DNA of 64,000 nucleotides from Amoebophrya sp. A120 (lineage: Eukaryota; Protista; Dinoflagellata), in the NCBI GenBank assembly GCA_905178155.1, contig CAJINV010000016.1, positions 310,001 to 374,000 on the forward strand, read 5' to 3'. Made by a program: the position numbers and the translations under genes. Positions 13,301 through 45,710 of this stretch are shown in pieces. Positions within the stretch are counted from its first letter, which is position 1, and every line of letters starts with the position of its first letter. The notes under the pieces were generated by a model. The model did no database searches. It saw only the letters and a list, made by a program, of their open reading frames with translations, and was not told where the DNA came from.

Positions 13301-15066
13301 GCGCCGCCGGCGTAGTGAGGCGGCTGTGAGGCGGAGAAAAGATAAGAAATTAGAATTTATTACATGGTTTGTTTCATGACAGAATCTCAAGTTCCCTGCG
13401 TGCTGTAAGTATAATTCGTTACACAAGAAAAAACAAAATCAATCAATCTCAATCGTATGTGGAGACTCCTCGTGGAAATTTACTTTTATTCAAAATTCAC
13501 AGAAAAAGCTTAAAAGACGTAAACAAACCTTTGCTCCATCTTGGTCCCCCGCCACAACTGCTTGGCTTGGTAATTTGGTCAAGGGCGCCGTGAGCAGATC
13601 TCGGACGTTGATCCGCATTTGTCACTGCCAAGTCGTGGTGCTGGACTTGATATAGAATTATCCACAACACCTGCACGTCGCTTAGTAGGTTCAGGACTCG
13701 GCAGCTGTCGCCCGTCGGCAGCGTCGACGAGGATGCGAAGTCCTTTAGCAGAAGGCTCCTCTTGGTCGCACCGAGGAGGTCGAGGTCCAAACCGCTTTCA
13801 GTAGCAGGAGCCGAAATGAAGAATCATCATGCCTGAGTAAGAGATGCACAACAATAGCATAGCAAAGTAAACAACTTCCAGACGGCGCGAAAAAGATGTT
13901 GTTGTAGCTCTTTGCTCATTACTCGGCGGCGATATTAAGCCTGTAATCTGCATGGAAAACGATAAATCCAGTTCCAGTTCCAGCATATAACCACTCAGAA
14001 ATAGAAATCATCTGCGTGACAACTGTCTTTGGCTTGTTCTACTTCTTGGGTGGAGCAATAAATAAATAAGACTACACGACTAGTAGCACTAGGTCCTATA
14101 AATTAGGTAGAAATAATCGTAAGTGGTTGGAAATTTACCAAATGCATACCGATGGCTGTCCTGGAACCCGACAGGGTGTAGCTCAAAGATTTCTCTCAAA
14201 TTTTTGCCACTCGTGATGCACAAAGAAGGGTTTTGCAGCTGAAGATGTTGAGCCTTCGAAAAAAGCTGGCCGGGCCGTTAATTTTTGTTTTGTTCATTCC
14301 ATGCAATCCCTCGTAGGACGACGCTAAAAAACAGGCCACGGAAAAAAAGACAATAAAGAAAAAACAAACAGATGAAATTCAAATTTTTGTGATGGAAAAT
14401 GCAACCAACTCAGCTAACACAAAGAACCAAAAGAAGTAGAACATAGAACATCACTCGTAGTCGACATTTGAGAACCAAACAAACACCCAAGTCACTTCTT
14501 GTTCCAGCGCAGGAAGCGAGGACGAACATAAACACTTACTAATGCCGTGCCGCGTACACGTCTTCGAGACTCTGCGACTTCTAATTCGGCCACTGCTACT
14601 CTTATCTATCACACCGAAGAACCTTTGTCGTTCGGCAGGGTGTATCCGTAAAAGTCTGAGCTGAAGGTAGAATGCTCCACTGAGAAGTACTAGAAGCAGG
14701 TGTCGCCTTTTCTCAAGGAGTTTCTCTTTCTCTTTGTCACAATCAAAGGTATCTATTTCCACCTACCGCAGCTAGTGGCAGGAGTTTAATAAGAAGGAAA
14801 GTAGTACCGATGATAACGTCGAATGATGTACTAGTTCACTCGTGCGAGAATTGTTCACAAAAAGAATCAAATATAGACGGTTTGCTTATTTTTACCCATC
14901 GACATCGAGTCCATTGTAGTGCCATTGTTGGTTTCTGTTTTTCTGCAAAGACCCAATTCAATCTGCATGTGATCCACCAAAACAAATCATTTACAGTTAC
15001 ACTTCGACCCCGTTGTTCCGGTGGAGTTTGCGTTTGCCGCTGCTTGTATGCAAGTGGAAGACGAAA

Positions 15067-15275
15067 TATGCAAGAAAAAAACTGTGTAAGTGTAACTTTG
15101 TAATGCAGAACATGCAACAGAGTTACGCCTGTCATGCCACACAGCCATGAGTTCTTCTTTTCGTGTGTGTTTTCCCTTACAAGCCACGCATGACAGATTT
15201 TCGCTGTCATGTAGAGCAAATTTGTGATGGTGTCAACCAAGGAAAGTTACACTAACACAGTTTTTTTCTTGGATA
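15067..15275. mobile_element. Family E element (UTR or intergenic)
   Basis: ~34-bp TIR; perfect TSD cgaaa; close match to the copy at 12033. Confidence 0.9.
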
Positions 15276-15525
15276 CGAAATTCATCAAATTCGGGCAACT
15301 ATACTGTGACGTAGTTCTGTTGATAATCCTTCAATCATGCAAGCATTTCTTTAGGTCTAGATGGACGATGATCCTCCCAGGTGTCATACGGCTACGCTTG
15401 AAGCCATGTATCTTCTATCAGGGCTTCCTTCCCCGCCCCCGCTGATTCAACAATGCATCTGCAGCCTGTCTATCTCATACTTCTTGTTCGAAACTACAGT
15501 CACTTTGTCCATCCATCTGCTTCCT

Positions 15526-18500
15526 CTACTCTCTGCGTTCTTGCATACTGAGCCCGATACCGCCACCGCCGCTGGTGCCCGCAGACGCTGCCGTCACGGC
15601 CGCCCGGGCCTTCCGCATTTCGACAAGATTGGTGGCGGCATATCAAATGCAAATATGTCTGGGTCTGGAAGAATGCGAGATTTGTCATGCTAGTCTGGAA
15701 TTTGGCTGTGCACTCTGTATTGCGTGGCCACCAAGAGGTCCTCTTGCCTGTCATGCAGAGAAAAACGCAGTTTCTCATGCGAAGTACGCAGCACAGAAGC
15801 TGGCTGATAGCCCCCAAAGCGGACGCGCGGCCGCAAACTTGCATCACAAGTTTCCAGGCCCAGACATATTTGCACTGGATACGGCAGAAAGAAACGCCAT
15901 GTCCACGTTGGCTGCCGTCTTGGCGCTCGTGCACATGAAAATCGCCCCCATTTTCGACGCCTTTTGCATGCCCTCCGACTCGGGCACTTGGATTTGGTCC
16001 TTCAGGTCGTGCTTGTTTCCCACCAAGATCTTCATGGTGTTCGGTCCACAGTCATGGTGTTGCTGAACCTGGAGTTTGTTTCCGGAAAAAAAGGTCGTTG
16101 CTGATCTTAACTATCTCTTGACTAGTATCCGATCTTCAGAAAACTAAAAACAAGGACGTGAATTCATGTGCAAACAGAAATAAAATTCCAATTCAAAATA
16201 TTTAAAACCGATCATAGCATTCAACCTGCTCCATCCACTGATCTACGTGATCAAAAGAGGTCCGGTTTGTTGCGTCGTAGACAAATATGAACCCGTCAGA
16301 ATTCCTGTAGTAGTTCCCCGTCACAACCGAAAACCGCTCCTGCCCTGCGGTATCCCAGAGCTGGAGTTTCACCAACTTCCCCTTCACCATGGTTACCACG
16401 GTCTTGAAGTCCACTCCGATGGTCGAGACGTGAAAATCCGCGTAAAAGTCCTGCACGAACCTGGTCAGCAGACAGGATTGGCTATCGCACAGAAATAAAC
16501 TGGCATAGCATTTGTCGTGTTTTTCAAAATGCAATTGCAAAAATTGAAATTCATACCTACAATAATAGGCAAAAAAATCTGTCATGGGCGTGCCTATACT
16601 AGCACGGGGCTACTTGGTCAATGCAATGCGTAAATTGTACTTAGTTCGTTTTTGCATTTTTTATTTTATAAACATCATATGCTAACAGCTTTTTCCGTTG
16701 GGATATTTGCCGACGCCGGAGTCGCCGACCGTGACGAGTTTAAATTTAAAGTCCCCGTCGTTCACTCCGGTCTCCTTGATGGCCAAAACGTTGAGGAAAC
16801 ATATGAAAAGAAAAAAAAACGCCACAGTCACTAAGTTCTTGCAGACTTTGCATGATCACAAATTTTTCTAGCACCGCAACTTTTTATTCTTCCTGTATTG
16901 CACAAACACAATGGAAATCGTCGTGTATGACCCGTTAAGATGCATTTCTACGAATGACAGACGGATTTGTATTGCAAAAATGCGCGTGACAAGTGATCAT
17001 CATGACGTCGCACTTTCTTTGTTTGATAAAAAACAACTTTTTGCTAATTTTCTCCTCGATGACCACCTCCCTTGCGTCCTTCTGTTCTATGAAAGTGGAC
17101 AACCCCTCCTTCTCCTTCGAAGTGAGTCATAAGGCCTCGTGCGCAACTACAGCAATAACAGCAGAGAATTCGGCTTAGCATAACAAATCTTTATTATATT
17201 CCAGGTACGCTGAAACAGAAACTCCAGTTGTACTTCTCTTTGGAGTTCTATTCTTTGTCATGCAAGGATCGGTTGAACGCCCGCGAGCTGGAATTGCGCT
17301 GTTGCATGACATAGCAGGGGACCTCCAAAATCTACTTCAACCCGGGGGACGAGAAGAAGTTGTCCACCGTCATATTGTCTCTTGCCCCACCAAAGACGAG
17401 CAGCTTGTCATGCAGAGTAGCTGCCGCGTGCCCTCGTACGTTGGTTTGACCCTCATACAGCGGTCGCTTCCATCGTTTCTCCTGTTCGGATTCAGGATCA
17501 GGTAGCAAGAGAGGTAGCAAGTGGACACAATTAGGATGAAGGAGCTTCATCGGTCTCCTCGCACTTGATGCTGAACGTAGAGTACTTAAAAATCTTGCAC
17601 GTGCAAAAAAATATACAGACTTTTTACGCGAAACGCTACAACATAGTACCTGCCAGTCGAGAATGTAGAGATCTGTCAGTCCGGATTCTGTCTATGGCGC
17701 TCTCAACTGTTACATTCTCAACTGTTACATGATTTGTCATGCAAAATTGCCTTGACTATCGACGCCATCAAGCTACTTCGCATGACAAATTCTCAGACGG
17801 CCAAACAGGCTGAGAGTCTGCGCCAAATCTGTCATGCAAGACGCGCAAGGTCCTTCCTTTCACTTTTGCCTTTCTAGCATCACCAATTCATGTAACAGTT
17901 GAGAACGCCATACTGTCCTGCCGCGGGGTATGAGGGCGGAAAGGCAACATCAGCACGGAATTTCTCTTCATGCCCTTGGCTCAACATTGTGAAATCCAAA
18001 TCGGATCCGGCTACTACAACTTCCTCGTGTGGAAATGCAAAAATGATTCTGCTACTGCTTCGTGAAGAACCCAGAACCGCATGTGGAGAAATGCCGGGTA
18101 CAATCCTGTTGCGCTTTTATGCATAACAAACACGAAGGCTCGGTTCCCGATCAAATCGAAGGAGTGAAATCTTCTGGGCAGCTATCGGAAGAAAAAGCTG
18201 CGCAAATGTTCCTACATCACACAAGTAAAGCTCAAGCTTTTTTCACTGAAAAAGCGTTGTTTTTCATGCGTTGAAAAAGCAAGACAACATCATGTGTGGC
18301 GTGCTGCGCAGATTTCTATTCAATTTAGGTTTAGCGCTTTTCTCATTCCGTAATAGTGGGCTGGTCCCTTGCGTTGCGAGTTTGCTTGTTTATGAAGAGG
18401 TAGAAAAAGATCGAGTCGCTTCTTGGTGATATAAAGAGCTTTTCTTCTCAGCAATGATGACAACAGCGTGTATTTCTTGTACTTTTTTTTCCGCTCCAGG

Positions 18501-20545
18501 AGATGATGATCACGCATTTTCTACATGAACATGATGAGTGGATAAAACTATACGCGGCCATGACTACATATTATAGCGCAAGAAACGATGCGGTCTATTC
18601 CTTTCCATATCCAAGCAAGGGTTTCCATATTCAGGGAATATAATTGGTTGTCTTCTAGCAGCCCGCCAAACACGACGAGCTGTGATGTTCTTGTTTCATC
18701 ATCTTCAATATCTATCATCAGTTCCTCACACGAACAACTCACACTCAGTACCACTGTGATAAAAATAAAGGAACTTCTCAACATGGGAGGTTGCGATTGA
18801 CAGAACCATCCTACATGCTCAAAAGACGGCACATCAAATCTACTACTGAAAACTAGACATACGTAAGTATCTATATACTACCTCCTCCCCGATCCCGATG
18901 CTTTTGTGCCCGTATCTTGGCGTGGGGCTCTGTCCGGAGGTTGTCACGGGCTCGGAGCGGAAGGACTTTGTGTCGAGACTAAACACCAGGACATCATTCA
19001 GTGCGTTGCTCGTCGACGCACTCGCCTCTGCGGGAAGGCCGCCAAAGATGACCACGTTTCCGCCGACAATCGAGCAGGAGTGGCAGTAGCGAGCGTAGGA
19101 GCTGTCGCCGGTAAATTTTGTCCAGAGTAGTGTCTGCGTTTCCATGGTATACACGCACCCCGTGTCGCCGACGCCCCTCGGAAGCCCCTGCTCGATGAGA
19201 CCCAGGTCTCGCTGATTGCCTCCAGTTTCTGCTCCACCGGAGAGAAGATCGTCCTGTCCGCCCTTTGTGTCGCTCGTGCAAAGACCACCAAAGCAGAACA
19301 GATGGTTGTTGTGGTGGCAAAGAGAATGCCCGTAGCGGGGTGCTGTTTTTCATCAATGGAATGGGTTTTACTTTTCTTCTTCAAACGCACATTTATTTTT
19401 CAAGTGACACGACTGGAGTTCTTGTGAAGACTTTCAATTATTTTTGAAGAGCACGGGGAAACAAGCATTGTGGTTCGCGTCATGTAGAACTCATCCAATT
19501 TCAAAATGTTTCTGTCAAATTCTGTACCTGGCTTTTGCCCGGACGCCGGAAGCTCGGACCATTTCATCTGCTCCAGTTCTAACAGATACGGTATGCAAGA
19601 AGCAAAATCCCTGAGCCATAAAGGTGAAACATCGTCATAACTTTTTAAGTACTTCTGCATAAGGACGTAGCAGTTGCAGTTTTTACATTCAACAGATACT
19701 AACCGCCCGAGGGCCTGAAGCACCAAATGCTGCATAAATTTCCACCCACGAGATAATCTTCAACTCTGGATGACTTCTTGAGATTTTCCTCGCATAGAGA
19801 CCTCGTCGAACGCTCTTCTTGAGGTGGCGGTATCCAGAGGAAACAGGTAGTACAGGGGGTCTCGGAAAAGTGATTGTTGTGCTTACGGTGTTGAGGAGCC
19901 AAAAAGAATGTAGTGAATGATGTGCCCACTTATATATGGCGCACTGATTTGTAGTTGCACGACGAGAGGTTGTCCATCAGAATTGATGAAAGCTTGCCGA
20001 GCATGCATTTATTTTGCACTGAACAATAAAATCGTTTCCTTTTCCAATTCTACCGCAAAAAAAGTTAAGTCACAGAACCACAACAAAAGAACCTCCTGCT
20101 CACAACCCCTGTTTATTCCTTGCATACCATCCCCCATGCAAGTACATGCGCGTCCCAACGGTCACGGCCTGGCCCAGCACCCGCTCCGTTGGGCACTCGC
20201 CATTCTGCTTCAGGTCGCAGACGGAGAGCACCAGATTATGGCGGCGCTCTCAAGCGTTACACTCTCCATGATTCTTACATGAATTTGCAATGCAAGAATG
20301 GCACAAGTGGAAGGGCGAAGGTTGCGCCTTTCGCATTACAGGAGGTTTGGAGCAGCTTATAGTGCTCTCTAGCGCGTCGAGACCGAGAGGTTGTCATGGG
20401 AAGCTGCAGCTCGATCATGTAAGTAGAGGTAGACGCTGGTGCCAGTTTTGCATGACAAATTCATCGAACAGTTGAGGGTGTAACGTTTGAGAGTCCCATA
20501 CAGATTGCGCACCGCGTGCTCCTGATCCGCTACGTCGTCCATCAT
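15526..20545 (-). CDS. Kelch-repeat beta-propeller fused to a C-terminal Rab1-like small GTPase
   Basis: Kelch blades (TRMYLHGG, RYCHSCSIVGGNVVIFGG, PTPRYGH, PRRFHSFDLIGNRAFVFGGR, RGHAAATLHDKLLVFGG) join in frame to GDSGVGKS, TIGVDF, WDTAGQERF, GNKHD and TSAK. Start MMDDVADQE at 20545; stop after GIGLSMQERRE. Confidence 0.8.
15641..15881. mobile_element. Introner family A in the Rab domain
   Basis: Perfect TSD cggca; removal gives MAFLSAATNLVEMR. Confidence 0.92.
16483..16705. mobile_element. Degenerate introner splitting the Rab P-loop
   Basis: TATC...GATA ends; TSD ttggc/tttgc; removal gives GDSGVGK|SCLL. Confidence 0.85.
16802..17028. mobile_element. Degenerate introner at the Kelch-Rab junction
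   Basis: TATG...GATA ends; TSD aaaca/aaaaa; removal gives KKLFFLNVLAIK. Confidence 0.75.
17088..17374. mobile_element. Introner (TIR tatga(aa/cg)gtggacaac)
   Basis: 16-bp TIR; TSD tgttc/ttgtc; removal gives FGGARDKKDAREVV. Confidence 0.8.
17693..17912. mobile_element. Introner family C (TIR tatggcg(c/t)tctcaa(c/a)(t/c)gttaca)
   Basis: TIR; perfect TSD ctgtc; removal gives GRTESGLTDLYILDW. Confidence 0.9.
17929..18125. mobile_element. Old introner with a fully decayed TSD
   Basis: TATG...CATA ends; the 4+1 rule yields Kelch AFVFGGR. Confidence 0.75.
18183..18355. mobile_element. Old introner
   Basis: TATC...AATA ends; the rule yields QGTSPPRRFHS. Confidence 0.7.
18391..18609. mobile_element. 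Old introner
   Basis: TATG...CATA ends; the rule yields ETLAWSKLATQG. Confidence 0.7.
20237..20500. mobile_element. Introner family C
   Basis: Perfect TSD cagat; removal gives AVRNLVLSVCDL. Confidence 0.9.
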
Positions 20546-20949
20546 CTTGTTGCCTGGACCGGTGAAAATGCGCAGGAGACTTTTGCCGGTGGTGTGCTCT
20601 TTTCACAGCTGTAGCTGTACTCGCCTCCGCCCTGTGCCGCGGTCGTGTTGCACTTCTTCCGACGTCGCCTCTAGTCTCCTGCACACGAGATGAAACCACG
20701 AGAACAACTGCGGTGGCCAACTCCTGGCTCCTGTGACGCGCGGGGGCCTCGGCCGGGTAAACCGATAAGCACTCTGCTTGTTCCCTTGGGGTTCAGCTCT
20801 GATCGTGGGAAAACTCGTCCTCTGGGTGGATGAATGTATATTGTTCGCCAAGAACGACCTGCCAGCAGCGCAGCCCGGTTTATTGTGGAGCGGACCTCCA
20901 AACGTGGACAATACTTGTTGGCGCTCCTTAGTTCTTCGTGCCACAAGTG

Positions 20950-23520
20950 CTTTTGTTTGCGCCGAGCGTCTTCATGATAGATTACCCAACAGTTGCAGAG
21001 GAGGCATGGACGAGAAAAACCGGCGATAATGTAGAAACAGAGGGGCGGCTTCCTCTGCTCGCTAGTTGTTGAGGGCGAAGAATGAAGATGTTGTAAGTAC
21101 CGCTTTTCCAGCCAGGCCAGGTCGCGCACGCAAGGAGCCAAAGAGTCGCACTAGATATAATTCAACTACCGGAGCTGGCAATTCCAATTCATCATTGTTG
21201 TAGGTGTTCTGTCTCCTAATAAGGCCACTATAACATCGTCGAGTTCTGTTTCAGGACGAAAGAATCGATCTTCGGGCGGGTTTGTAGATGCAAGTGCTCG
21301 GGTGATTGTGGCGAAAATGAAAAAATAAAAATTGAGGGGATATTATTACGCCCACCACCAAAAAGACGACCTACGAGCAGGATCTTCGCCGTCGTGTCAC
21401 ATTCGCTAAAAATCGGCTCAGAACCTACATCTCAAGCCTTCCGCTTCAGAACAGCAACAGATACAGAAAAATCTCCATTTGCATCAAGCCGCTATAGATT
21501 ATTCTTGTGACTGAAAAAATCGTATGAAGGATCCATCACATTTTTGCGGTCTTTTCCTTGCTTACAACTTGCGCCGTCCACTTTGCGTCCTTCTGTTTAG
21601 CATCCTTGGCCAGCCAAACCCAAACGCAAACTTCGGCACGAGTTTAGTGTAAGCCTTCTTTTTGTCCACCTTTGCACGAAAAGGTAAGCACTTCGAGGGA
21701 CCACTGCGGAACACACCACACCTTAACAAGAGTTTCTTTTCTTTCCACGGCTACCTGTCGTGATCTTCGTGGTTGTAGTTGTCATTTTTCACATAGTACA
21801 TCATCTTTTTGAAAGATTTGGAAAACGAAGCTGTAGCTTGTTGCGCACCAACCGTCAAAACTACAAGCCACAGGATTTGAGTAAATTGACAGCCTCGCCA
21901 GGTCGTCTTCCTTTCAAAAAAAATAGGAACCTGGTCCTGCTGTACTACGGTTGTGTAGTACAGGTGTGCCAGATTTTGACAAAAACGCAGATTTTTTCCT
22001 CTTTGACAAAAGCTATTGCTATTCTTTTTCGTACAGAAACAAACGAGTGCTGGTGAGGACCAAAGCTTTTTGTTTGCTGGCGGAAACAAACGAGTGCTGG
22101 TGGTTTTGTTTGCGCCGAGCGTCTTCATGATAGATTACCCAACAGTTGCAGAGGAGGCAGGGAGAAAAACCGGCGATAATCAATCTTGAAACAGGAGGAC
22201 TTCCTCTGCTCCCGAATTACAGAGGGCGGAGATGAATGTACCGCTTTTTCAGACAGGCCAGGTCGCGCGCTGGTCCGCTGTTTCACGCACGCCGGGGGCC
22301 AAAGATTTGTCGCACTAGAGACGGAGGCAACTCATTGTCGTTCTGATTCTGTCTTCTATTTAAATCAAGCCACGACTATATTGAGTTCTGTTGCAGGACG
22401 GAAAAGTCCTCGATGTATGAAAATGCAAGTGCCCCGGTGGTGGCGAAAATGCAAAAGGAAAAATAGCATCAACTGAATAAGACCACAGCCGCCAGCAACG
22501 AAAAGAAAAATAGCGACCTACGAGCAGGATCTTTACACCAGTTTCACTTTTACTAGTTGGTCAAAAGCAGCTTCCTCAAGATTTTGCCCACGCGTAGAAG
22601 TTGTTTCAGAACAGAAACAGATTGAGACCAGCCCTTTTGCATAAGCGAGCCATGACACCTCGCGTGATTTGTGTGCGGGAGCGCAATGAAACAAACGCAT
22701 AAAAGGATCAGTCGATGCGGTTTTTTGCGTGTAGCTTTTGTACTTTTTGCATAATCTTCAGATTTGCTTCTTTTCATCAGGGGCCAACAAGAACAAGCAG
22801 CGTTATGCTAATGTGAGACTCCTTACCGTGCAGCTTCACACGAATGATATGCGATCGTTTCCGGAACGGGAACACATCACACATTCAACACGAGAGCTTC
22901 TTTTCTTTCCACTACCTGTCGTGAAGATCATCGTGGTGCAATTTTCTACATAGTACAACATCTTTTTGAAAGATTTGAAAAACAAAACTGTAGCTTGTTG
23001 CGCTCCAAGTACTAGCTTCTCCCCAGAAGCCACGGTCTCGCCAACTCTTCCTGAGACAGCCGTGGAAACTACAGTGTAGTTTCCTGTGGTGTGTAACACG
23101 CCACAGGATTTAATATTCACAAATGCATGCACCAGGGTGCTATTCTTTCAAAAAAATAGGAACCTGTTCCTGTACGGGTGTATACATCTTGACAAAAACG
23201 CAATGCACGGTCTTTTCTCTTTGACAAAAGCTATTCTTTTTCGTACGGAAACAAACGAGTGCTGGTGAGGACCAAATATGGCGCTCTCAACTTTTACATT
23301 CCCAACTGTTACATGAGTTTGTGATGCAAGGAGGGCAAAAGTGAAAGGGGTGACCTTGCACGTCTCACATCACAGATTTGCCACAGATTCTCACCCTATT
23401 TGGCTTTCCTAGAATTTGCCATGCGAAGCAGCTTGATCGCGTCGACTCTGCTTGTAATTTTGCATCACAAATTCATGTAACAGCTGAGAATGTAACATTT
23501 GAGAAGGCCATACCAAAGCA
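20950..23520. repeat. Degenerate tandem duplication of a ~1.15-kb unit
   Basis: gtttgcgccgagcgtcttcatgatagattacccaacagttgcagaggaggca at ~20955 and ~22108; gaaacaaacgagtgctggtgaggaccaaa at ~22036 and ~23248. Confidence 0.8.
23277..23512. mobile_element. Family C element in the second copy of the duplication
   Basis: Perfect TSD ccaaa; the paralogous site at ~22060 is empty. Confidence 0.92.
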
Positions 23521-29800: not shown

Positions 29801-32800
29801 TCTTCTAGACCCAGACATTTTTGCATTTCATATTGCAGAAGTCGGTCCAATATGGAGTCAGTTATACAGGAGGATGGCTGTTCCGCACACATAGATGATG
29901 AAAAAGAAAAACAAAAACTACGGTCTCTGCATGACACAACTTGCATCGCACAATCCTGTTCAGCTTCCGAATCGCAAGCGGCATACTTCAACAAGAAATT
30001 GTTCTTGGGAGCAAAATTTGTGATGCATGCATGTAGTACTTCATTGTGTATAGAACAAAATTTGTAAATTGCATATCAGCGAGGGGCGTGCTACTCTTCC
30101 CGGTGTCTATCATCCCGCGCCTGCTGTTGTTGTGCAGCTTCCGTGCTTCTATGAAAACAAAAAAATCATGCTATCACTCTTCATGCTATCACTTCGGATC
30201 ACAGACAGGATTAAATTGAGGAGGAGACGCATAAAACAATTCGAAAAGGTTCTTCTTCTACTCCCTCTGCACCCATGCACAGATTGGAATTTCATCTTCA
30301 TTCAAGCAGCCAGATAAAAAATTGGCTTCTACAGTCGGTGGTGATAGTACTAGCGTTTTTCGTTTGGATAGCTTCTTCCTCTAATGCATCAATCGCGACA
30401 CGCTTTACCATGGACGTGAAATCGCGATCAGAGGCAACCAGTACCTGATAATCAAGGACGAGGGTTTGATTTATTTCATTAAAAGCCCAGAAAACGTAAG
30501 TGCGATCGCTATTGTTTGCGCATGAGAGTGTCTGCGAAGCGGGAGGTGCCCGACAGCTGTCTCGTATGCCAACAAGTGCATCGGCTTTTTACGCACGAAG
30601 CTTCCTATATCACGAACTAGAACTACTGGTGGAGGACACGACATGTATGAGTAACTTCTAAGTGGTGGAGGATACGACATGAACTTCTAAGTATGGTTTT
30701 CTACTTGGGAGCAGGTTTACTTCGATCACACTCAAACGACATCATGAACAACCCTGTAGGAGGTCATTCCAGCAAGAAGTTGTCCAGTCATCATGATATT
30801 ACCTGGTTCGCGATGACAACGCCTTGCTTCGGCCCGGGTTTGCTTTTATTGTCTGGCGCGGGTTTGGGGCTTGGACCGGGCCGGTCTTCCTTGTTGCTAT
30901 CCGGATCCTTGATTAATTTTTCCCACCCGATATCAACTGTAAAAATGTCTGGGTCTGCAAGAATGCAAGTTTGTCATGGGTGTCTGGCATGACTCGAGAA
31001 TCTGTGTTGCATAGGCACGAAAAGGCCCTCTTACCTGTCATGCAAAAACGCAGTTTGTCATGCGGAATACGTAAGACATGGGAGCCAAAAAATTTGTCAT
31101 GCATAGCTGCGTATTGCAGTCCGTCTGCCATTCACTTTTAGCATCACAAGTTTCCAGACCCAGACATTTTTACATTTGATACCCGACCTCCTTGAAAGCT
31201 TTGTCCAAATCCAGCGCCATCAGCTCCTGGGTGGGCAGTATGGAGTTCGCAAGCGTTACACTCTCAAGCGTTGCATGAGCTTGTCATGCAGAATTCCCAC
31301 CAGTAAGTACTTATCTACATGATCAGGCTGCCTCGCATGACAAGCTGTCGACGCGGTAGGTAGCATTAGAAATCGTTCCCCTCGACGCACTTTTGCCATT
31401 CTTGCATTGCAAATTCGTGCAACAGTTGAGAGTGTAACGTTTGAGAATCGTCCCATAAGCAGACTTGGGTCCTTGTGATCGAACCCGCCGAAAGAGTAGA
31501 TTTGCCGGTCGTACACCCAAGCACTCGTCCGGAACCGATCGTTTGCGCCACTCAGGGTCTTCCACTCGCATTGGGCCGTGTCGTAGATGCAGGTGGGAAG
31601 GGCCTTGTTCACATCTGCGCCCCGACCGCCGATGATCAGCATAAACTTCTTGAAGCATATTCCAATGTGCTGGAAACGGGCTTCGGGGGAGGCTGTTGTT
31701 GATATGATTGTTGTTGGAAAAACGATATTATCTAAAGATCTGGATATCGAAACAATTTATGTTCTGTAGCACGACATGCTGCTGCTACACCTCGTTAAGT
31801 ACTCCACATTCTCACACAGCTCTGAAACCACATTTTCGTTACACAGAAACCAATCCTGCTTCGCCTCACAAATTGCAATTGTGCGTGTAGTTACCACAGA
31901 ATTGTGCGTGAAGGCTGCAAAGATGCAATAAATACCAATTTTTGTTTGCCAGTCTCTAGCATCCTCCACCATGCTACCAGAACTACACCAAAAAATTATT
32001 CTATCGCAGATCAATTCAGATTCATCATGTAAAAAAGGAAACCACCTCCCTTCTTTGGTTCAACCCAGTCCCAACTCCGATCCCGGTGTTGCCTCAAGCC
32101 CCAAATGTCCTTCAGCGAGCGCTGCGTTCTTCCCTCGCCCGTTCGCTATGAATTGCAAATATGTCTGGGTCTGGAAGGATGCGAACTTGTGATGCTGCAG
32201 CTGGATTCTATAAAAATCAGTATTGCAGGAACAGCAAAAGAGGTTCTTTTTTTTCCATTGCGAGAGGGCATTTCTCATGCGGTATAGGCATCAGAAAGCC
32301 CTCACAAAATCTGTGATGCTAGGGCATGCATCACAGACATCAGGACTCATGCAAAATGTGCATGACAAACCTTGCATCCTTCCAGAGCCAGACATTTTTG
32401 CGTCTCATATTCGCCCGCCAAAAACGATCATCATCCCGGAAGCAGGTCCCTCACGGCACACTTCCGCGGTGTGGTAGACGCGTGACAGCTATCAAAAGGA
32501 AAAATCCCCCCTCCCCATATCAAAACGAAATTCCTGATGCTGGATTTGCGTACACAAATTTGGTCTGTCTTGCTGCAAAGAATTGTGGCCAGATACTTAA
32601 GCTGTTTAGGAGCGCACGGGTCTAGCTGTATAGCATGGGAAACGCGTGCCCTGTAGGCCAACCAGCATGACACATCGCGCCCATAATGCGGCTCATCTCC
32701 CAGCGCTTGCCTTCTTGCAAGACCAAAATGATTTGTGACCACAAATCTGCATCACAAATTTTCCGAAGGGTGCCTTTTCAATATGGGGAAGGGTGATTTT

Positions 32801-33924
32801 TCGTTGCAATAACAGCGGGGGACTGCCCTTGCACGTTGGGTTCACTTCGGACCACATAAACGGAGAGTTCTCGACGTGCAGTATAGACAGGGAGAAAACT
32901 TCTACACCCATGGTATGCAGCTTTTTGAACAACAGCGTGGTCGTTTTTTATCTCCAAGAAGAACGCAGTTTTGCCATATTCCATCCGGCATTACAAATTG
33001 TTGTAAACATGGCAATCGTATTAGTATGCAAGAGCAAGGTGCAGTGGTAGCTTTTTCTAGCATATCCAGGATCCAAATGTCGGAATCTAATTTGTTGTTG
33101 ACCGAGCCGCCGCAAACGATCAGGAGCGGCTTGTTGAAAACCATCGTATGACCTGATAGAAGGTGGATTTTTTTTCTAGTCATGCAGCTTAGGTAAGTAC
33201 TTCTTACTTACCAGGGGCGGGATGAAGATTTTTATGTGCGTTATTTCTCATGCTGGGTATCTCCATCTCTTGGTGGTGTTCAGGATGACGAACCGTAAGA
33301 ACCGCGACATTTTGTAAAACAAACACGTGAAAAATTCTACTACCGTATCTCCTCCCCGGCGTCTGCCCCTTTACCGGCACGGTGAGCCACATCGACTTCC
33401 CTTCATTCCTAAAGTCGAGCACGTGCAGCTCGTCTGAAACCAAACTTCCTCCACCGGTCGCGCCGCCGTAAACGACCAACTGCGCTAACTCGACGCAGGC
33501 GGCAGAGTGTGCCGCTCGCGCGGACGGAGCAGGGCCGCCTGTCGTGTTGATTATGTTTCATCGTGTGCTTTCGCTTTCCATTCTCACTGCACGAATTTTA
33601 CGAGCGACGTGCCCCAAGGTGTATCTGTTTCGTTCCAAATCATGATTCTCCTCTCTAGTCTCTACAAGACAGCACATAAAAAATCTTTATCCACAGTAGG
33701 TACTACGTCTTACCCTCTGGGTCCGGTATGACTTTGCTCCACTCTTTTTTCGTAACGTCCAAAGAGTACGCGTCTGCCGTGATCGTGTATTCTTTCATGT
33801 CGCCCAAACAGCCACCAAACACCACCACCCTGGTGTCCCCAACAAGGGTCGCCGTGTGGCCGAACCGGGGGGCGGGCCGCTGCCCCCGCTCGCCCGAAAT
33901 CACCACGGAACGAGTTTTCGACAT
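23820..33924 (-). CDS. PPKL: Protein phosphatase with Kelch-like repeats (PPKL/BSU1-like), copy A
   Basis: Kelch motifs APRFGHT, PSARAAH, PGRRYGHTM, RVYHTA. PPP motifs [45 protein letters not shown]-terminus RPPTPPR...GDW*. Confidence 0.93.
23959..24373. mobile_element. Introner family J with an internal minisatellite
   Basis: TIR tat..tgtgcaaaa.cg.cccc; TSD atttc/atttt; removal gives VPKLIYP; internal repeats of gcagtaaaatattcaacactggg. Confidence 0.85.
24748..24999. mobile_element. Introner family A
   Basis: TSD ggtgc/ggcgc; removal gives [13 protein letters not shown]. Confidence 0.9.
25039..25346. mobile_element. Introner family B
   Basis: TSD cgggg/cgggc; removal gives KFGPDRV. Confidence 0.9.
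25908..27233. mobile_element. Old introner enlarged by a ~1-kb direct-repeat-flanked insert
   Basis: TIR tatgcaaggatggagaagtggtt / tatgctggggagaaggtggtt; removal restores catalytic IFCIHGGIG. Confidence 0.8.
27774..29282. mobile_element. Family D-like introner enlarged by a ~1.3-kb insert
   Basis: TIR tatcc.tg..aaaagtaatat; perfect TSD cgttc; removal gives [16 protein letters not shown]. Confidence 0.88.
29353..29507. mobile_element. Introner family D
   Basis: TIR tatgcactgcaaaagtatcgta; TSD gacac/tacac. Confidence 0.9.
29571..29832. mobile_element. Introner family A
   Basis: Perfect TSD ttgca. Confidence 0.9.
30931..31181. mobile_element. Introner family A
   Basis: Perfect TSD cccga. Confidence 0.9.
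31239..31457. mobile_element. Introner family C
   Basis: TSD ggcag/agcag; the rule yields DPSLPTQEL. Confidence 0.88.
32147..32409. mobile_element. Introner family A
   Basis: Perfect TSD ttcgc; removal gives FGGRTGEG. Confidence 0.9.
32490..32811. mobile_element. Introner family I (TIR tatcaaaaggaaaaatcccccctccccatat)
   Basis: Perfect TSD acagc. Confidence 0.88.
32882..33064. mobile_element. Degenerate introner
   Basis: TSD tgcag/tccag; the rule yields IWILDVENSPF. Confidence 0.8.
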
Positions 33925-37942: not shown

Positions 37943-40900
37943 TCACCAGTCCCCTCCCGTTCCACTTTCGTTCCTGCGCGCTCGCGGTACTGGGCGGGGT
38001 GGTGTTGGTGGCCGCGCGGTGGTAATCCGCTGATCCCACTGCGACGATTTCTTTTCATCCGTATCCTGTGCAAAAGTATCGCACTCGTATTGCAATCATG
38101 CATTACAAATCTTGTTCTTGTGCTAAATCCGCATTACAAATTTTACTTCTCATGCTGAGGAAATTTGTGATGCATTTATACGAGTACGATACTTTTGCAG
38201 TGCATAATCCGCCGGATAGATCAACTTCGGGACAATCGTCAGGTCGCGTCGCACGAACAGCAAAGCGCCGGCGTTTTTGTGGTGCCCGCAGTAGTCCGTG
38301 GCGGAGAAGAGAGTGATCAATTTCCCGGACGCAAACCGCTCAAATATGACAGTGCACAACTCCCCCTCGTTCTCATTTCTCATGCAAAATCCACAATTCC
38401 AGTTGAAGTTGCTCCCTTCTTGTCGTGTCACTATTATGCATGACAACTCAAACAGTACTACACTAGGCACAAAAATTTGTCATGTATAGACTCCACGTGG
38501 GGTGGTGTTTGTATTGCTCTAGCCAATAAACAAATGAGGGGGAGCAGGTGGAGTTGTGTACTCTGATATCAAACCCGTCCATCACACACTCGTGCGCGCG
38601 GATGATCATCGAGAGTGGGGGGTTCTTCTCGAGAAACTGCAACACCCGGTCGGGCCCGAACTTCACTATTCTGCCTGTGCCGTCTGGGTCGCGAGTCTCG
38701 TTCGTGGTGACCCCGCGCAGGGTGTCGCTGTCACTGGGATCGGACCAGAGGAGGTCTGTCACCTTCTGCTCTTCGTGGTTGGACGGGATCCGCTATCAGA
38801 GTGCACAACTCCCCCTCCCACTCATTTGTCATGCAAATTTCCAAGTCTGCCTTTTGCCTGTTAGCACTTTTTGCATGACAGATTCCGAAAGTAGCCAAAA
38901 CAGTACTGCAATCCCCTAGGAATTTGTCATGGAAAAGCTGCATCTTTGCCAGCGCTTGCGTTGCTGATCATGCAACACAAATGAGGGGGAAGGGGACGTC
39001 GAGTTGTGCACTCTCATATCTGCGCGACTTTCAGCGGCCGCGGCATACTGCGGATGTCGTCGGGAGAGTTGATGTATCAAATGTAGATAGGTCTGGGTCT
39101 GGAAGAATGGAAGGTTTGTCATGCATCTTTTGAATAGTCCGCGATGTCTGTGATGCATGCCCTAGCATATAGAGATTCTCTGTGTGCAACCTTCTCAATG
39201 CGTATCCTGCATGAGAAATAATGCCGCGTCTCCGCGCAGGAGCAAAAACTGGACTGCTCTTGCGGTTCATGCAATGGAGATTCTTTTTAGCATCCGAAGG
39301 CAGCATGACAAGCTTGCGCTCCTCCAGACCCAGACATATTTGGAATGCATATGATGGCACCACCGATGCCGCCGTGAATGCAGAGGATCTTGTTTTCGAT
39401 CACCGCCCCAGCGGGGAGGAACTCAAACACGGTGTTAAACATGGCCCAAACGGAATTCGGCGAGTCGACATCTAAATTTTAGTATTGATTTTTTCGAGTG
39501 GACAACAATTTATCATTAATTATGGTTGACTCTGTACTAGAAACTAAATACCAAACAAAGGCTACTACAACTTCGGCTTCGCAATAGAAATGGAAATCGT
39601 ACAAACATAAGAGTACTACTATACCGTCCCTCAGCCTCCTTCTGCACTCTTCCCTAAAGCCATAGATCCCATTGATGGTTGGGTCTTCGTGGTTGCCTCG
39701 TATCATGTGTATCTGGTAGGGGTGCTTGATTTTCAGCGCGAAGAGCAGGCAGATCACTTCGAGTGAGAACGACCCCCGGTCGACGTAGTCGCCGAGAAAC
39801 AGGTAGTCCATCGCATCTAGGTCTCCCCCAGCTGTGGAGTCGTCGTGCGGACAGTTGTAGCGGGCAAAAAGCCGCATCAAGTCCAAAAACTGCCCGTGAA
39901 TGTCCCATCACAGGAAAAAAACTGTAGCTTCTTCACGGTGAATACTTTTGATCATGCGAGGACTTAAGATGACTTTGTCCTGTTTCAGAATCGTGGTAAG
40001 GCATCGGACTCTTGTTTTCAGCCGTGTGTTCTTCGATATAGTACGAAGAACCGCGCGTGACGCCGCGTCATGGCACCAGATCTACATTTTCATTCTACTT
40101 CGCCGTCATGCGAAACACTTACACTACATCGCCGTCATGTGTCATGCAGATCCTTCCTCAGAATCATCTTCACCACAGTGAACTCGCCACTTTTTTCGTG
40201 CGATATGTCGCCGTACACCTTGATCGGGGCGCGGCACTGCAGCAGCATCGGCTCGCGCTATTACAATGAAAAATGCCCCCCACCCCCAGCTTGGCAGAAT
40301 TTGTATTGCAAACCTTTCCAACAGAAACATTCCGCGTCTTGCATATCTCAGCATCACAAATTTTCCATGCTGAATAGGGCAAATTTGTGTTGCGAAGTAG
40401 GTCAACAGCAGCCAGATCGGTTATGATGCACAATGCACCTTGCGAAACTAGATTCTGCATCAGAGTTGCTGGCAATCCTTTTATGCAAGACAAAAAGCTT
40501 TCATTTGGAAACTTTGCATGACAAACTTCTGCAAATTTCGGGGTGGGGGCATTTTTCATTGTAAATACGCGCTTGAAGATCTCCAGAGCTTCCTGGCAAA
40601 GGCGGTAGCACTCTTGTATGGACAAGACAAACGGTTGATCGTCACCGGGTGGGGGCTGCCACGTGGCGGGTTGGAGCAGCAGGTTCAGGACCTGGAAACA
40701 AATAATTACGAGGCTATTTCTTACACCATCAAAAAGAATAAAAGTGTTCATAAATCCCGTTACATATTTATATCAATTCTCATGTGGTAGACGAGATGCG
40801 TAACCAAAGCAAGCAACAGCCAGATTATAGAGGTACATGATCCACGAGCGCCGCCTTGTCACCGCCTCCGAGGTCTACGTGGACGTTTGCCATCTTGCCC

Positions 40901-43900
40901 TGGTATCGAAAGGAAAAATCCCACGTCCCCACATCATACATCAAAGCGGAATTTGTGTAAGTACACCTACACAAATACGCTTTGCATTGCAGCAAGGCAC
41001 TGCGGCCAGATCGTCCCCAGCCTAGGTAGAAGAGGCGTCTGGGTCTAGTTGCTCAGCATTGCAAACGGCTGCCCTCTAGGCCCAACAGCATGCCAAATCG
41101 CTTCCATAATGGGGCGAAAGCTTCTGCCCTTGTCTTCTTGCAAGACAAATGTGATTTTTTGTGAACACAAATCAGCAACACAAATTCATCTCCGGGGGGA
41201 GCTCTTCCTTTCCATACCTGGCCAGTCATCTTTCGACTTTCGTCCTCCAACTCCGAAATCGCGACCTGTCGCACAATATCCTGTGCAAAAGCATCGTACT
41301 CGGATCGCAGTCATGCATTACAAATCTTTTTGTTAAGGTAGATCCGCATTACAAATTTTCTTTCTCATGCTGAGGAAATTTGTAATGCAATTTATACTAG
41401 TACGATACCTTTGCAATCCATACACCAAGTGCGTGAAGTCCCGCTCGTGCGAGATAAACACTTGGTATCCACAGTAAAGTTCCCGTACACGTACAAAAAC
41501 AAATGCAGCCGCTGCATGACAAAACTTGCCTTCAATCGTAGTCCAGCATGACAACTTGGACACACGCTGCAAGTTAGCGAAATTTTTTTTTGTCATGCAT
41601 TTTGTACATGTACAGGAAATTTGTAGTGCATACTTGGTTGGAAATGCGGATGTCGCTGCCCCGCGCGTTCGCGTCGTCGAGCGGCTGTTGCACCATGCCG
41701 TACGAGGACCGCAGCGGATTTAGCGCTGCACTCGGGTGGTTGTTTGCCAGGGAATCCAGGTGCTGGGGCTGCGCCGCAGCTGGGGCGGAACCACCGGGGG
41801 CGGGGACGCCTAGAGGTTTTAAAAAGTACGTACACAGAAGATCACAATTTGAATTTGGCTTCTTCCTCAAACAGGTAAAGGGGATGATCAGGAGCGCCAT
41901 GCATGATGCGCGTCAGCACTTGTCCATGATAATGCCATGGATGCCTTTATGCAAGAAAGATGTCAACAGCAGACTCGAATCTTCAAAGTGAATTTCGAAG
42001 TGAGGCTGCAGAAAACCCGTACAATTTGTAAGTACCCAGCTCCGCAAAGGCCTGATCCAGGTCCACCACTTGCAGATCGTTTGTCGGCGCGGAGGGCGAT
42101 TTGTGGTCAAACCCGCCGTAGCTATACAGCTGGTTCTGCAGCAAGTAGCAGAAATGTCGAAACCGATTGATGGACGCGATGTTTTCCCAGTTACACGTTT
42201 CCGTGTCGTACACCGCAGTTGGCAGCGCCTTGTTGACGTCGTTCCCTCTGCCACCGACGATGAGCAGTCGCGAGTTATGACAGTGCACAACTCCCCCTCC
42301 CTCTCATTTGTGATGCGAAATGCCATATCCAAGTTCTGCCTTGTGGTACCGTTATTTTCATGACAGATTCTGAAAACCTAAACAATACGACGCTACGCGC
42401 ATGGACTTGTCATGGGCACCAGGCTCCATGTGCGCTGGTGTTTCTATTGCTGCTCATGCAACACAAATAAGGGGAAGGAGGAGTTGTGCTTGTGCGCTCG
42501 CATACGAGTTGTAGAAAATGCACGAGTGCTGAAATCGCGCCTCGGGGACGACTGCATAATTTTTGTTTTTTCGTGAAGACGACAAACAGGATCATGATCT
42601 GCTGTCTGTACACATCTTGTCATTCCGCGTAGCAACGCAAACGGGGCTTGGTGGAGGAATTACTATCAAAGCACAGGCAAGAAGAAAAAATAAAAAACCT
42701 GTTCTGTCGCTGTCCCAACGAGTTGTATTAAGAAGTGTGAGATGATTCTACTTGAAATATATACCTCCCTTTTTTGTCGGAGCCTCGACCCAGTCCCACC
42801 TGCCGTCCCGATGCTGTCGCAGCCCCCAGGTATGCACTGCAAAAGTCTACTTATCGTATTCCTACTAAAATTGCAGATATGGATGACAAATCTTCCGCAG
42901 AATGGGAATCAGCATGACAAACTTGATTTTTCATCATGCTAAAAAAAATGTGTAATGCAATTCGTACATGTACCAGCACGAATAAAATTTTGCAGAGCAT
43001 ACCAGATGTCCTTTAGCGACCGGTTTTCCGCCGTTCTGCCGCCAAAAATCACCATCATGCCGGCGGCCGGGCCCTCGCTATTCTGAGGAAAAATCCCCCC
43101 TCCCCATATCGACAAGGTGTGTTTCCGAAAATTTGTGTTGCTGATTTGAGGTCACAAATCGCGTCTCCTGTCTTGCAAGAAGACAAGCGCAGAGGCTTCC
43201 GCACCATTATGGAAGCGATTTGGCATGCTGTTGCGGCTAGGGGACACCCGTTTGCAATGCTAAGCAACTAGACCTATACGCCCCTACCTAGGCCGAGGAT
43301 CTGGCTGCGATGCCTTACTGCAAGACAGATCCGATTTGTGTAGCCAAATCCTGCATCACAGATTTCCATTTCGATATGGGGAGGGAGGATTTTTCCTTTT
43401 GATACTCGCGGCACACCTCCGCGGAATGGTACACGCGGGCTACCGGGGCTTTCGAATTCTCCTTCATTTCATCACAAGAAAAAAACTGCGTAAGTGTAAC
43501 TTTGTCTTGCAGATGTTGCAATACAGTTACACTTGTCATGCCGGATATGCGTCAGAGGCTATTTTAGTACGTGTTTTAGCGTACTAGCTACGCATGACAA
43601 GTTTTCTGTCGTGCAAAACAAATCTGTAATGCTGTTCCTGCAAAAAAGTTACACTTACACAGTTTTTTTCTTGGATACATTTGCACAAGACTCCACTGAA
43701 ACGGGGCGTGCTCCACGTCGAGAATCCAAATGTCGTTTTCTATCCTGCACAAAAATCTTACGCGTACTACTACTAGTTGCGATCTTCCTGCATGACAGAT
43801 CCAATTGTCGACCTGAGTCTACATGACAAATCGCAGTTTTATTGTTTTTCCTCGCGGTCAGAAGTTGTTCCTATACTTGCGAGGACGACAAAGTGGAACT

Positions 43901-45710
43901 GGATCCCCGCATGCAACTAGTAGTACTAGTACGATAGTACAACTTTTGCAACGTCGATAGTTTCCGCTTGTTGACCGTTGTTGCCGCCACACACAATCTA
44001 TGAACTGCAAAAGTATCGTGCTCGTATAAATGCATTCAGCATGAGAAATGAAATTTGTAATGCGAATTTACCTTGAGAACAAAATTTGTAATGCGTCATT
44101 ACTACGAGTACGATACTTTTGCACAGGATACAATCAACAGGGGCTTGTTGAAAACCATGGTGTGACCTTAGTTTGTAAGTGTAGTTCTCCTTTGTCATGC
44201 TGTCTTGTGCAATGCAGAATGAACGCTTGTCATGCATGATGCGAATAAACAGTTGTAGCAAGAACTTCGTGTGTAGTACTTTTATGTGTTCAGCATTATA
44301 CCGCAATATAGTACCATATCTCCTCCCCGGAGTGTCTCCCAAGACGGGAACGCTCATCCAGGACGACTTCTGTTCGTTTCTGAAATCCAGTAAATAAAGC
44401 TTATCAAATGCAAAAATGTCTGGGTCTGGAAGAGTGCATGTTTGTCATGCTTGTCTGACATGACTCTTAAATCTCTCATGCACGTTAAGTACCCAAGAGC
44501 CCCATTAATTTTGCTGCCAGTTGCAGAAACGCAGTTTGTCGTGCAGAATAGGCAACACCCAGAAGCTCAAAAGCTCGTCATGCTACGCCAGCACTTGTGG
44601 CCTCTTCATGATACATACGCCACCCAGCATCACAAGTTTCCAGACCCAGACATTTTTACAATCCATAAAGCTCGTCCGAAGACAAAGACCCGCCTCCTGT
44701 CGCTCCTCCATAGATGACCAGCTGGCTTGTGTCCACACAGGCGGCCGCGTGCGCCGCGCGGGCAAACATCGCGTTGAAAAGCACCCCCGCCCCAGAAGCA
44801 GAACTTGGCAGTATTCGCATTATGAAACATCACCCGTTTTACTCTTACATGTGACAGCACCATCGCAGATCATATTGCGTTCTGAAAGAATAAGGTAAAC
44901 TTTGTGCTGCGAAAGCGCCCAGCAGCAGCCGCATTTGTACAAGATGCCCTGATGCACCGTGCCTAGATTCCGCATTAGAAAAACTCCTAGTGCTCAGTGT
45001 CCTTACATTAATAATAACCTTCTCAGGCGGAGGGGGCACCTTTCATTGTAGTAACGGACGGCGGTGGCACATCCCCTGGTGTGGGGCGGATCTGGCTCCA
45101 AGTGAAGGTGGTGGTGTCCAGGGAGTAAGTGTCCGCAGTAATCGTGTAACGACCTTATTATTCAATGTCTCGTAAAAGTGAATCAACAAGAATAAGAACT
45201 GTATCTGGTTCACCTGGATGAAGAGCCAAGAACAACAACCACATCCATGTCAGTCACGCTTGCAGTTGCAATAAATGTTCCAAACAAGAACGAACAAAAT
45301 AGAGCACTCTAAAAATAACAAGTACCGCTGTCTCCCGTGGCTCCGCCAAACAAGACTACGCGGTTTTGGCCAACTAGCGTCGCGGTGTGCCCGAACCGTG
45401 GGGCGGGGATGTCCCCACTTTTATGACTTGCTCAAACGTTACACTCTCAAACGTTACGTATAGAGTCTGGAATTTGTGTTGCATGATGAGCATGACAGAC
45501 TCGCACAGCGTTCCACCTTTTGCAATACAAATTTCGCCAGATTGTAGTGGGGTTTGGGGCTTCGGAACTTGTCATGCGCAATCCTATGAGAGTTGGCTTG
45601 ACCAATTAGTCTTGCATCACAGATTTCCATATTCTATTGTAACGTTTGAGATTGTAACACCTGAGCGGGTTATAACTTTCGGTTAAAACTTTTTGCGGTT
45701 CGACGGACAT
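37943..45710 (-). CDS. PPKL: Protein phosphatase with Kelch-like repeats (PPKL/BSU1-like), copy B (alternative ATG at 46005)
   Basis: [23 protein letters not shown]; [51 protein letters not shown]; C-terminus RPPTPPR...GDW*. Confidence 0.93.
38062..38206. mobile_element. Introner family D
   Basis: Perfect TSD atccg. Confidence 0.9.
38345..38568. mobile_element. Introner family G (TIR tat(g/c)a.agtgcacaactc)
   Basis: Perfect TSD tcaaa; removal gives [10 protein letters not shown]. Confidence 0.92.
38794..39018. mobile_element. Introner family G
   Basis: TSD tccgc/tctgc; the rule yields VAQIP. Confidence 0.9.
39075..39351. mobile_element. Introner family A
   Basis: Perfect TSD tgatg; removal gives [11 protein letters not shown]. 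Confidence 0.9.
39906..40205. mobile_element. Degenerate introner splitting the GDIHGQ motif
   Basis: catc...gata ends; TSD tgtcc/tgtcg. Confidence 0.82.
40259..40567. mobile_element. Introner family H (TIR tattacaatgaaaaatgcccccacccc)
   Basis: Perfect TSD cgcgc; removal gives IFKREPML. Confidence 0.9.
40904..41216. mobile_element. Introner family I
   Basis: Perfect TSD cctgg. Confidence 0.88.
41277..41422. mobile_element. Introner family D
   Basis: TSD cacaa/cacca; removal gives THLVRQVAI. Confidence 0.88.
42276..42504. mobile_element. Introner family G
   Basis: Perfect TSD cgagt; removal gives [11 protein letters not shown]. Confidence 0.9.
42831..43001. mobile_element. Introner family D-like
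   Basis: TSD ccagg/ccaga; removal gives [10 protein letters not shown]. Confidence 0.85.
43079..43404. mobile_element. Introner family I
   Basis: Perfect TSD ctcgc; removal gives VCREGPAAGM. Confidence 0.9.
43470..43677. mobile_element. Introner family E
   Basis: Perfect TSD cattt. Confidence 0.88.
43741..43959. mobile_element. Degenerate family D-like introner
   Basis: TSD ttttc/gtttc; the rule yields AENDIWILD. Confidence 0.82.
43999..44130. mobile_element. Introner family D
   Basis: Perfect TSD caatc; removal gives KPLLIVCGG. Confidence 0.9.
44402..44667. mobile_element. Introner family A
   Basis: Perfect TSD aagct; removal gives SDELYLLDF. Confidence 0.92.
44767..45053. mobile_element. 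Degenerate family H introner
   Basis: TSD gcaaa/acgga; the rule yields PPPSARAAH. Confidence 0.8.
45422..45674. mobile_element. Introner family C
   Basis: Perfect TSD acttt; removal gives [10 protein letters not shown]. Confidence 0.88.

Follow-up and report, generated by a model that had tools for sequence, protein, structure and literature searches.

The window analysed here is a stretch of 64,000 nucleotides from Amoebophrya sp. A120, dense with TAT...ATA inverted-repeat elements that are flanked by 5-nt direct repeats. Three genes on its minus strand were modelled, in which introns made of such elements (introners) stand beside 17 ordinary GT–AG introns:

15560..21247, minus strand: Kelch-repeat plus Rab-like GTPase gene, 11 introners and 4 GT–AG introns; 575-codon frame matching the protein P0002
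23820..33924, minus strand: Kelch-domain protein phosphatase gene A, 15 introners and 7 GT–AG introns
37943..45710, minus strand: Kelch-domain protein phosphatase gene B, a paralogue, 18 introners and 6 GT–AG introns

The Kelch phosphatase and Rab-like designations are those that we take to follow from Pfam accessions and the names of protein matches. Every non-GT–AG intron in the models was removed with k = 4, where k is the number of bases retained from the upstream copy of the flanking 5-mer; this geometry is called 4+1. Inside the three modelled spans, introners and GT–AG introns suffice, and a third kind of intron is unneeded. The 4+1 model of gene A is identical to the annotated A120 protein P0001 at 787/787 residues, an annotation that may derive from the same transcripts as the contigs described below. 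Gene B, modelled from sequence alone (the read evidence reaches to 33.4 kb), gives an 807-codon open frame that aligns to P0001; its own annotated protein is not among the protein matches listed. Genes A and B are tandem paralogues with introners at different positions, and each thereby serves as the empty-site control of the other. For the kelch–Rab gene, record 6 of the X3 contigs (2799 nt) covers 14630–21247, and a single open frame in it holds both the kelch repeats and the Rab-like GTPase domain. P0002, the orthologue from a relative, has the same kelch–Rab join with a phosphatase before it, indicating a gene order common with the relative. Non-introner repeats of 72–79% identity (20947–21127 with 22100–22268, and 21863–22064 with 23096–23276) also lie in the transcribed stretch that separates gene A from the kelch–Rab gene.

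Elements with a 5/5 repeat and an inverted match of at least 13/20 number 32 in the window and 0 in each of five shuffles. The end profile of these confident elements shows a TAT start and A at positions 11–15, and many elements group into families of 68–85% identity in the self-comparison of the window. They are the introner elements of A120 described in PMC7789003, which lists an inverted repeat starting with TAT, a later run of A, and boundary direct repeats of 3–5 nt. The paper reports that introners lack a clear boundary signature, that their splice sites vary in position with respect to the hairpin, and that the border is unknown; how some 65% of A120 introns are spliced is left there as an open question. 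It also mentions four-base repeats upstream of the 5′ end, which partly anticipate the 4+1 offset. A fixed offset is stated in no text found by a search that had most subscription papers outside it, and Figs 3, S19, S21, and S23 of PMC7789003 may show it.

In the contigs, the elements are spliced out, and the introns have ends other than GT–AG. The junction is exactly defined at a decayed introner in the kelch–Rab gene, with the following features:

17929..18125, minus strand: decayed introner TATG...CATA, with a relic inverted repeat 3–4 nt out of register (gapped end alignment)
17925..18126, minus strand: intron of 202 nt, TT...CC, composed of N + element + NNNN (X1 and X3 contig joints)
18126..18130, minus strand: upstream 5-mer TTTGT, bases 1–4 exonic, base 5 being intron position +1 (contigs)
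17924..17928, minus strand: downstream 5-mer CCCCG, bases 1–4 being intron positions −4 to −1, base 5 opening the exon (contigs)
17914..17924, minus strand: exon of 11 nt with an introner on either side (contig path equal to the model)
17689..17913, minus strand: neighbouring introner intron with a GT donor, a perfect 5-nt repeat, and an unused AG at −5/−4
17931..17931, minus strand: A at intron position −7, a predicted branch point (A in 45/45 elements)

The initial annotation had placed TTTGT and CCCCG at these positions on either side of TAT...ATA, correctly, and had proposed that only a 4+1 split restores the residues FGGR. The intron 17925–18126 was predicted in this way before the contigs were compared with the locus, and the contigs agree with it. 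In spliced contigs from X1 (depth 26 and 11.7) and X3 (27), 17924 is joined to 18127; the letters run from 17692 through CTGCCGC to 18127, and since CTGCCGC corresponds to genomic letters 17918–17924, the intron is fixed and a slide is impossible. Only k = 4 yields FVFGGR, the same residues as in P0002; at the remaining five values of k the product reads PRGR, SRGR, FRGR, FRGR, or FVGR. TTTGT and CCCCG agree at 0/5 positions, and with only a relic of the inverted repeat left, the target-site duplication named in the initial annotation is deduced for this locus from the family. The element is absent among the 70 longest self-matches listed for the window. RNA editing at junctions was set aside, the contig path being equal to the genomic letters.

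X1 and X3 are two samples of one study, and their status as RNA is our guess; since their records skip four GT–AG introns, they are treated as spliced transcripts. The contigs display only the major forms, and the annotation from which P0001 comes may draw on the same data. Fifteen of the 54 joints were examined, comprising nine at introners, four at GT–AG introns, and two (25075/25170 and 31066/31136) that lie inside elements, resemble other copies, and were dropped; the junction at 17929 came separately, from the between-letters table. The raw-read runs X8 and X9 contributed 99 and 3 aligned reads, mostly on a repeat. Each of the ten tabulated introner junctions is compatible with k = 4, which at two of them (17929 and 25908) is the sole possibility, and three further contig junctions are limited to k = 3–5 or 3–6. 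The introner introns that bear most directly on the offset are as follows:

16479..16706, minus strand: introner intron at GKS, contig joint 16476/16705, k = 3–6
18179..18353, minus strand: introner intron with a T-TAC donor instead of C-TAT 3 nt upstream (in frame), contig record 6
18387..18610, minus strand: introner intron, copies 1/5 identical, k = 3 leading to a stop
19827..20127, minus strand: introner intron, copies 0/5 identical, only k = 4 giving HGGCTS (P0002 residues; 193-nt sum equal to the contig gap)
25904..27234, minus strand: introner intron of 1331 nt, TT...CA, second exact k = 4 junction (X1 and X3 joints, both = 0)
31235..31458, minus strand: introner intron at SLPT, k ≤ 4 (P0001 model, homologues)
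32878..33065, minus strand: introner intron at ILDV, k ≥ 4 (P0001 model, homologues)
38790..39019, minus strand: introner intron at VAQIP, k ≥ 3 (homologues)
43737..43960, minus strand: introner intron at AEND, k ≤ 4 weakly favoured (homologues)
44763..45054, minus strand: introner intron at SARAAH, starting with TAC and ending with ATG (homologues)

In the kelch–Rab gene, the exons unseen in the joints add up to 457 and 193 nt, exactly the lengths of the gaps in X3 contig record 6. The variant donor at 18179..18353 contributes to this agreement, as the TAC model gives 457 nt and the TAT model 454, and the TAC model reads SPLPRRF as in P0002. The conserved motifs that the initial annotation had used to assign individual bases to one copy or the other were consistent with the new evidence, weakly so at one site. 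The CI-HGG site (25908) is exactly k = 4 by contig, and the GK-S site (16483) lies within k = 3–6 by contig, with GKS also in P0002. In the homologues (116 aligned rows, fewer in individual columns), D occupies 72/85 rows at ILD-V (32882), P 90/91 at LPT (31239), and Q 111/115 at VAQIP (38794), and the column at SARAAH (44767) is A60/P17/S1 with V in 0/78. The weak case is the END site (43741), N being supported weakly by a column with C33, N31, S11, and A6 as the top residues among 85 rows.

For a general count we used 45 elements, namely the 44 in the three gene models and one supported by contig. Identical copies in 22/45 cannot reveal the offset; among the 23 with mismatched copies, 19 could be scored by contig or homologue residues, and k = 4 is excluded at none of them, with k = 0 excluded at 17, k = 1 at 14, k = 2 at 10, k = 3 at 6, and k = 5 at 7. 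The seven contig-informative sites all allow k = 4 (p = 0.0024 if k were uniform over 0–5 at each site). One of the 19, at 42831, is weak, being scored on the paralogue alone with homologues that favour the k = 0 residue (T50 and I19 of 85); the remaining 18 exclude k = 4 at none, with a chance product, calculated by hand, of about 6e-7, from which the weak sites 43741, 29353, and 29863 were kept out. Altogether, introners almost certainly leave by a fixed 4+1 geometry, in which the cuts fall one base before and four bases after the element, an offset that is constant across many element families. This accords with the geometry proposed at the outset, a donor N+T that lies one base ahead of the element and an acceptor that lies four bases beyond it, as judged by the contigs, the annotated protein, and the homologues, and two contig joints (17924/18127 and 25903/27235) are exactly 4+1.

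Could the junctions instead slide within the repeat, 4+1 being the major form, or the survivor of decay or selection at diverged copies? The elements with identical copies are silent on this, rare variants would be dropped by contigs, and PMC7789003 calls the sites variable, at 1–5 nt from the inverted repeat. Repeats can, however, make mapped positions appear variable, and sliding is difficult to reconcile with the scored sites, where every k other than 4 is excluded at 6–17 of them. In-frame alternatives that decay would have spared, namely the AG at −5/−4 and the C-TAT donor 3 nt upstream, are also unused. We therefore regard sliding as very improbable.

Aligned on this junction, the 45 elements conform to the code N-TA(T/C)...AT(A/G)-NNNN. 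T at +2, A at +3, A at −7, and T at −6 are invariant in 45/45; at +4, 42 elements carry T and the other 3 carry C, at −5 there are 42 with A and 3 with G, and +5 is mostly G or C (G28/C13). The invariant TAT...ATA ends of the initial annotation had thus to be relaxed, with three of the 45 donors reading N-TAC and three ends reading ATG-NNNN. Its suggestion that AG is not recognised was borne out: only 3/45 introners end in AG, position +1 and positions −1 to −4 carry 0.00–0.13 bits, and an AG three bases upstream of the junction (−5/−4) is passed over in 16/45. Such skipped AGs occur at the contig-seen junctions 16483, 17693, 23959, 24748, and 27774, two of which have a GT donor and could have been GT–AG introns. 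With G at +1 in 17/45, the introners depart from U2-type introns at the donor as well as at the acceptor; enrichment of G at +1 was sought and not found (p = 0.16), and TAYG donors did not differ significantly in number from TAYC donors (11 vs 4, p = 0.12). The intron phases of 44 elements are 16:12:16, as expected if the target supplies no recruited base (an argument made in 10.1101/2020.10.14.339549). One introner, at 40900–41217, reads GT...AG by chance of its target 5-mer, and such cases would be counted as canonical in annotation. On the genome-wide scale the code is matched by Table S4 of PMC7789003, which gives nine predominant A120 boundary pairs that all begin with NT and end variously, and nine A25 pairs that all begin with TT.

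The initial annotation had attributed the fixed offset to a ruler measured from the paired termini. The count does run from the end motifs, and not from the stem, and the motifs may be read either paired or single. At the 17929 locus, both end triplets are predicted to be unpaired in the RNA fold (z 0.08; terminal-pair probability 0.02–0.03), which weakens the part of the proposal that concerns pairing. The predicted terminal-pair probability exceeds 0.5 in 29/43 elements and is below 0.1 in 11/43, and end pairing is predicted to be small in most of the 17 GT–AG control introns. The inner stem lies 1–4 nt off the end triplets at 17929, 18183, 20237, 31239, 40259, and 43470, and the junction or frame is unchanged. 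Positions +3 and −6 are complementary in 45/45, and +2 and −5 in 42 with three wobbles; none of the six end variants is compensated (0/6), and the pair +4:−7 is a C:A mismatch in 3/45. The tolerated changes are asymmetric (+4 and −5 vary, three each, with +2, +3, −7, and −6 fixed) though the inverted repeat is symmetric, an asymmetry that is not significant in the validated genes (Fisher p = 0.1) and reaches 0.008 on adding variants backed only by local open frames. All −5 variants are G, which wobbles with T at +2, and both kinds of variant are transitions, so either pairing or a mutation bias could account for them. The elements with predicted end pairing include three old ones with diverged 5-mers (19831, 19592, and 18391), a possible sign that the stem is under selection; in that case A at −7 would need to be melted out.

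These observations bear on a spliceosomal chemistry in which the branch lies away from −7 and the terminal hairpin positions the acceptor. The stem is retained in most elements, the match to YUNAY at −7 is poor, and the U2 spliceosome is reported to remove MITE-derived non-canonical introns in Fritillaria (review PMC11282704). A register variation of 1–4 nt nevertheless leaves the junction in place, and the invariance of A at −7 is unexplained by this route where +4 is C. A hairpin-positioned acceptor thus appears improbable.

A second possibility, which we hold to be doubtful but clearly more plausible than the hairpin, is a dedicated machinery akin to that of Euglena, reading paired UAU:AUA and cutting 1 nt before and 4 nt after, which is the ruler of the initial annotation, with the spliceosome serving the GT–AG introns only. 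The nonconventional introns of Euglena follow the code N3-CDG...CH′G-N5–6, with complementary triplets, fixed spacers, and a required stem, and this precedent, which is genetically dissected, has the same layout (PMC12501133). Both systems have free boundary dinucleotides, complementary triplets, fixed spacers, a terminal stem (in A120 predicted for 29/43 elements), direct repeats that blur the junctions, and a suspected MITE origin (PMC12501133). The predominance of predicted end pairing in the introners over the GT–AG controls and the complementarity of +3:−6 and +2:−5 favour such a machinery, as does the report of U1 snRNA as undetected in A120 (PMC7789003). Against it stand the uncompensated C:A mismatches, the low terminal pairing in 11/43 elements, with the read-verified 17929 locus among them, and the donor itself, where U+2 and A+3 are shared with the GT–AG donors of the host; the predominant A25 donors carry T at +2 as well (PMC7789003 Table S4). 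The introners also lack the euglenid CDG/CH′G triplets with spacers of 3 and 5–6 nt: Euglena has CAG/CTG, spacers of 3 and 5–6 nt, and a purine at the exon start, whereas A120 has TAT/ATA and spacers of 1 and 4. Complementary middle-base changes are tolerated in Euglena, whereas none is seen in the 45 A120 elements, and the lineages are unrelated (PMC12501133).

The explanation that we favour, with moderate confidence and at about an even chance, is that the U2/U6 spliceosome reads U+2/A+3 together with an A at −7, predicted to be the branch point, the acceptor being set by a fixed count. In this mechanism, MITE-like introners would insert with a 5-nt target-site repeat, and their removal would leave a single composite (4+1) copy; the distance from A at −7 would fix the acceptor in place of AG. 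Both cuts lie inside the duplicated 5-mer and one copy's worth is removed, so the coding sequence would be restored wherever, and in whichever phase, an element inserts; this might explain the spread of the elements. In the yeast P complex, according to 10.1101/212811, G−1 pairs with G+1, A−2 pairs with the branch A, and U+2 contacts U6 A51. By analogy, U+2 may be held by U6 A51 in A120, and G+1 and G−1 would be recognised through their mutual pairing; their joint loss with U+2 kept fits a relaxed exon-ligation site. The inverted-repeat stem would join the ends in substitution for U1/U2AF bridging, and would not be the ruler. PMC7789003 lists U2, U4, U5, U6, Prp8, SF1, and U2AF in A120, with U1 snRNA undetected.

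Kinship of the donors is consistent with the spliceosome as the reader of U+2/A+3: +3 is A in 15 and +4 is C in 8 of the 17 GT–AG introns, and C at +4 is the sole variant of the introner donor. A fixed distance to the branch is also reported, at −8 in Entamoeba invadens and with constraint in other lineages (10.1101/2022.06.08.495308). That system resembles A120 in that an invariant A lies close to the 3′ end at a fixed distance, and differs in retaining GU, AG, and a full branch motif, the branch at −7 in A120 being predicted only. Evidence against a branch at −7 comes from the −9 base of the YUNAY motif, which is T in only 22/45. Moreover, the GT–AG introns of the three genes use AG and have A at −7 in 8/17, not fixed, so that one spliceosome would need two acceptor modes. 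That a spliceosome dispenses with G+1 and AG for most introns of the genome, by means of U+2/A+3, the branch at −7, and the fixed count, we consider slightly less probable still, a little short of even. If it does, a TAT...ATA transposon with a 5-nt target repeat would make a perfect intron wherever it lands, whatever the phase or orientation, and exons could shrink to a single base, with GT–AG introns still spliced in the same transcripts.

Introners of Polarella, Symbiodinium, Micromonas, and Aureococcus are likewise elements with terminal inverted repeats whose splice sites lie in or across the target repeat and whose removal restores the coding sequence, but they recruit G(T/C/A) and AG out of the repeat or the element, so that a target motif is needed and several frames are possible (10.1101/2020.10.14.339549 and PMC11282704). 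The A120 introners, in contrast, recruit no fixed target base and have a single frame. The introns of Fritillaria borealis are also MITE-derived, non-GT–AG, and species-specific in position, beside conserved GT–AG introns, but prefer the pairs AG-AC and AG-AT, whereas +1 and −1 to −4 are unconstrained in A120 (review PMC11282704). What we describe is a read-confirmed rule on a published element class, for which we infer the mechanism. The fixed code turns the splicing question of PMC7789003 into single-base tests, permits unambiguous re-annotation of tens of thousands of junctions, and would explain the harmless spread through coding DNA of elements without a target motif. If splicing is spliceosomal, it would be a naturally occurring example of exons ligated without the G+1/G−1 and branch-A/A−2 contacts thought to underlie GU–AG conservation; if not, a splicing code of the Euglena type would have arisen a second time.

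Several further elements were noted in the window. Long elements of 1.3–1.5 kb whose ends are those of the family but whose interiors are foreign, one of them very GC-rich, lie at 3413–4715, 25908–27233, and 27774–29282; an X1 contig over 28254–29312 with 29 other letters and 9 gaps indicates the presence of a diverged copy or allele. On the minus strand, a candidate TAT start lies at 53156, and 10214–10515 is a candidate element with a repeat match of 0/5. End variants with a TAG start, an AGA end, a TAC start, and an ATC end occur at 57424–57588, 57678–57936, 49708–49858, and 50234–50491 (minus strand), respectively, and all four keep +2 T, +3 A, and −7 A, as judged by local open frames. The gene near 49.9–50.1 kb, which also has a GT–AG intron, is presumably ABHD17-like by its motif. 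The introners at 57091–57381 and 56908–57084 are 6 nt apart and would leave, under 4+1, a one-base exon at 57086 (minus strand) in a 173-codon open frame, which we take to contain a DUF2237-like motif; the message could also arise from one long intron with other offsets.
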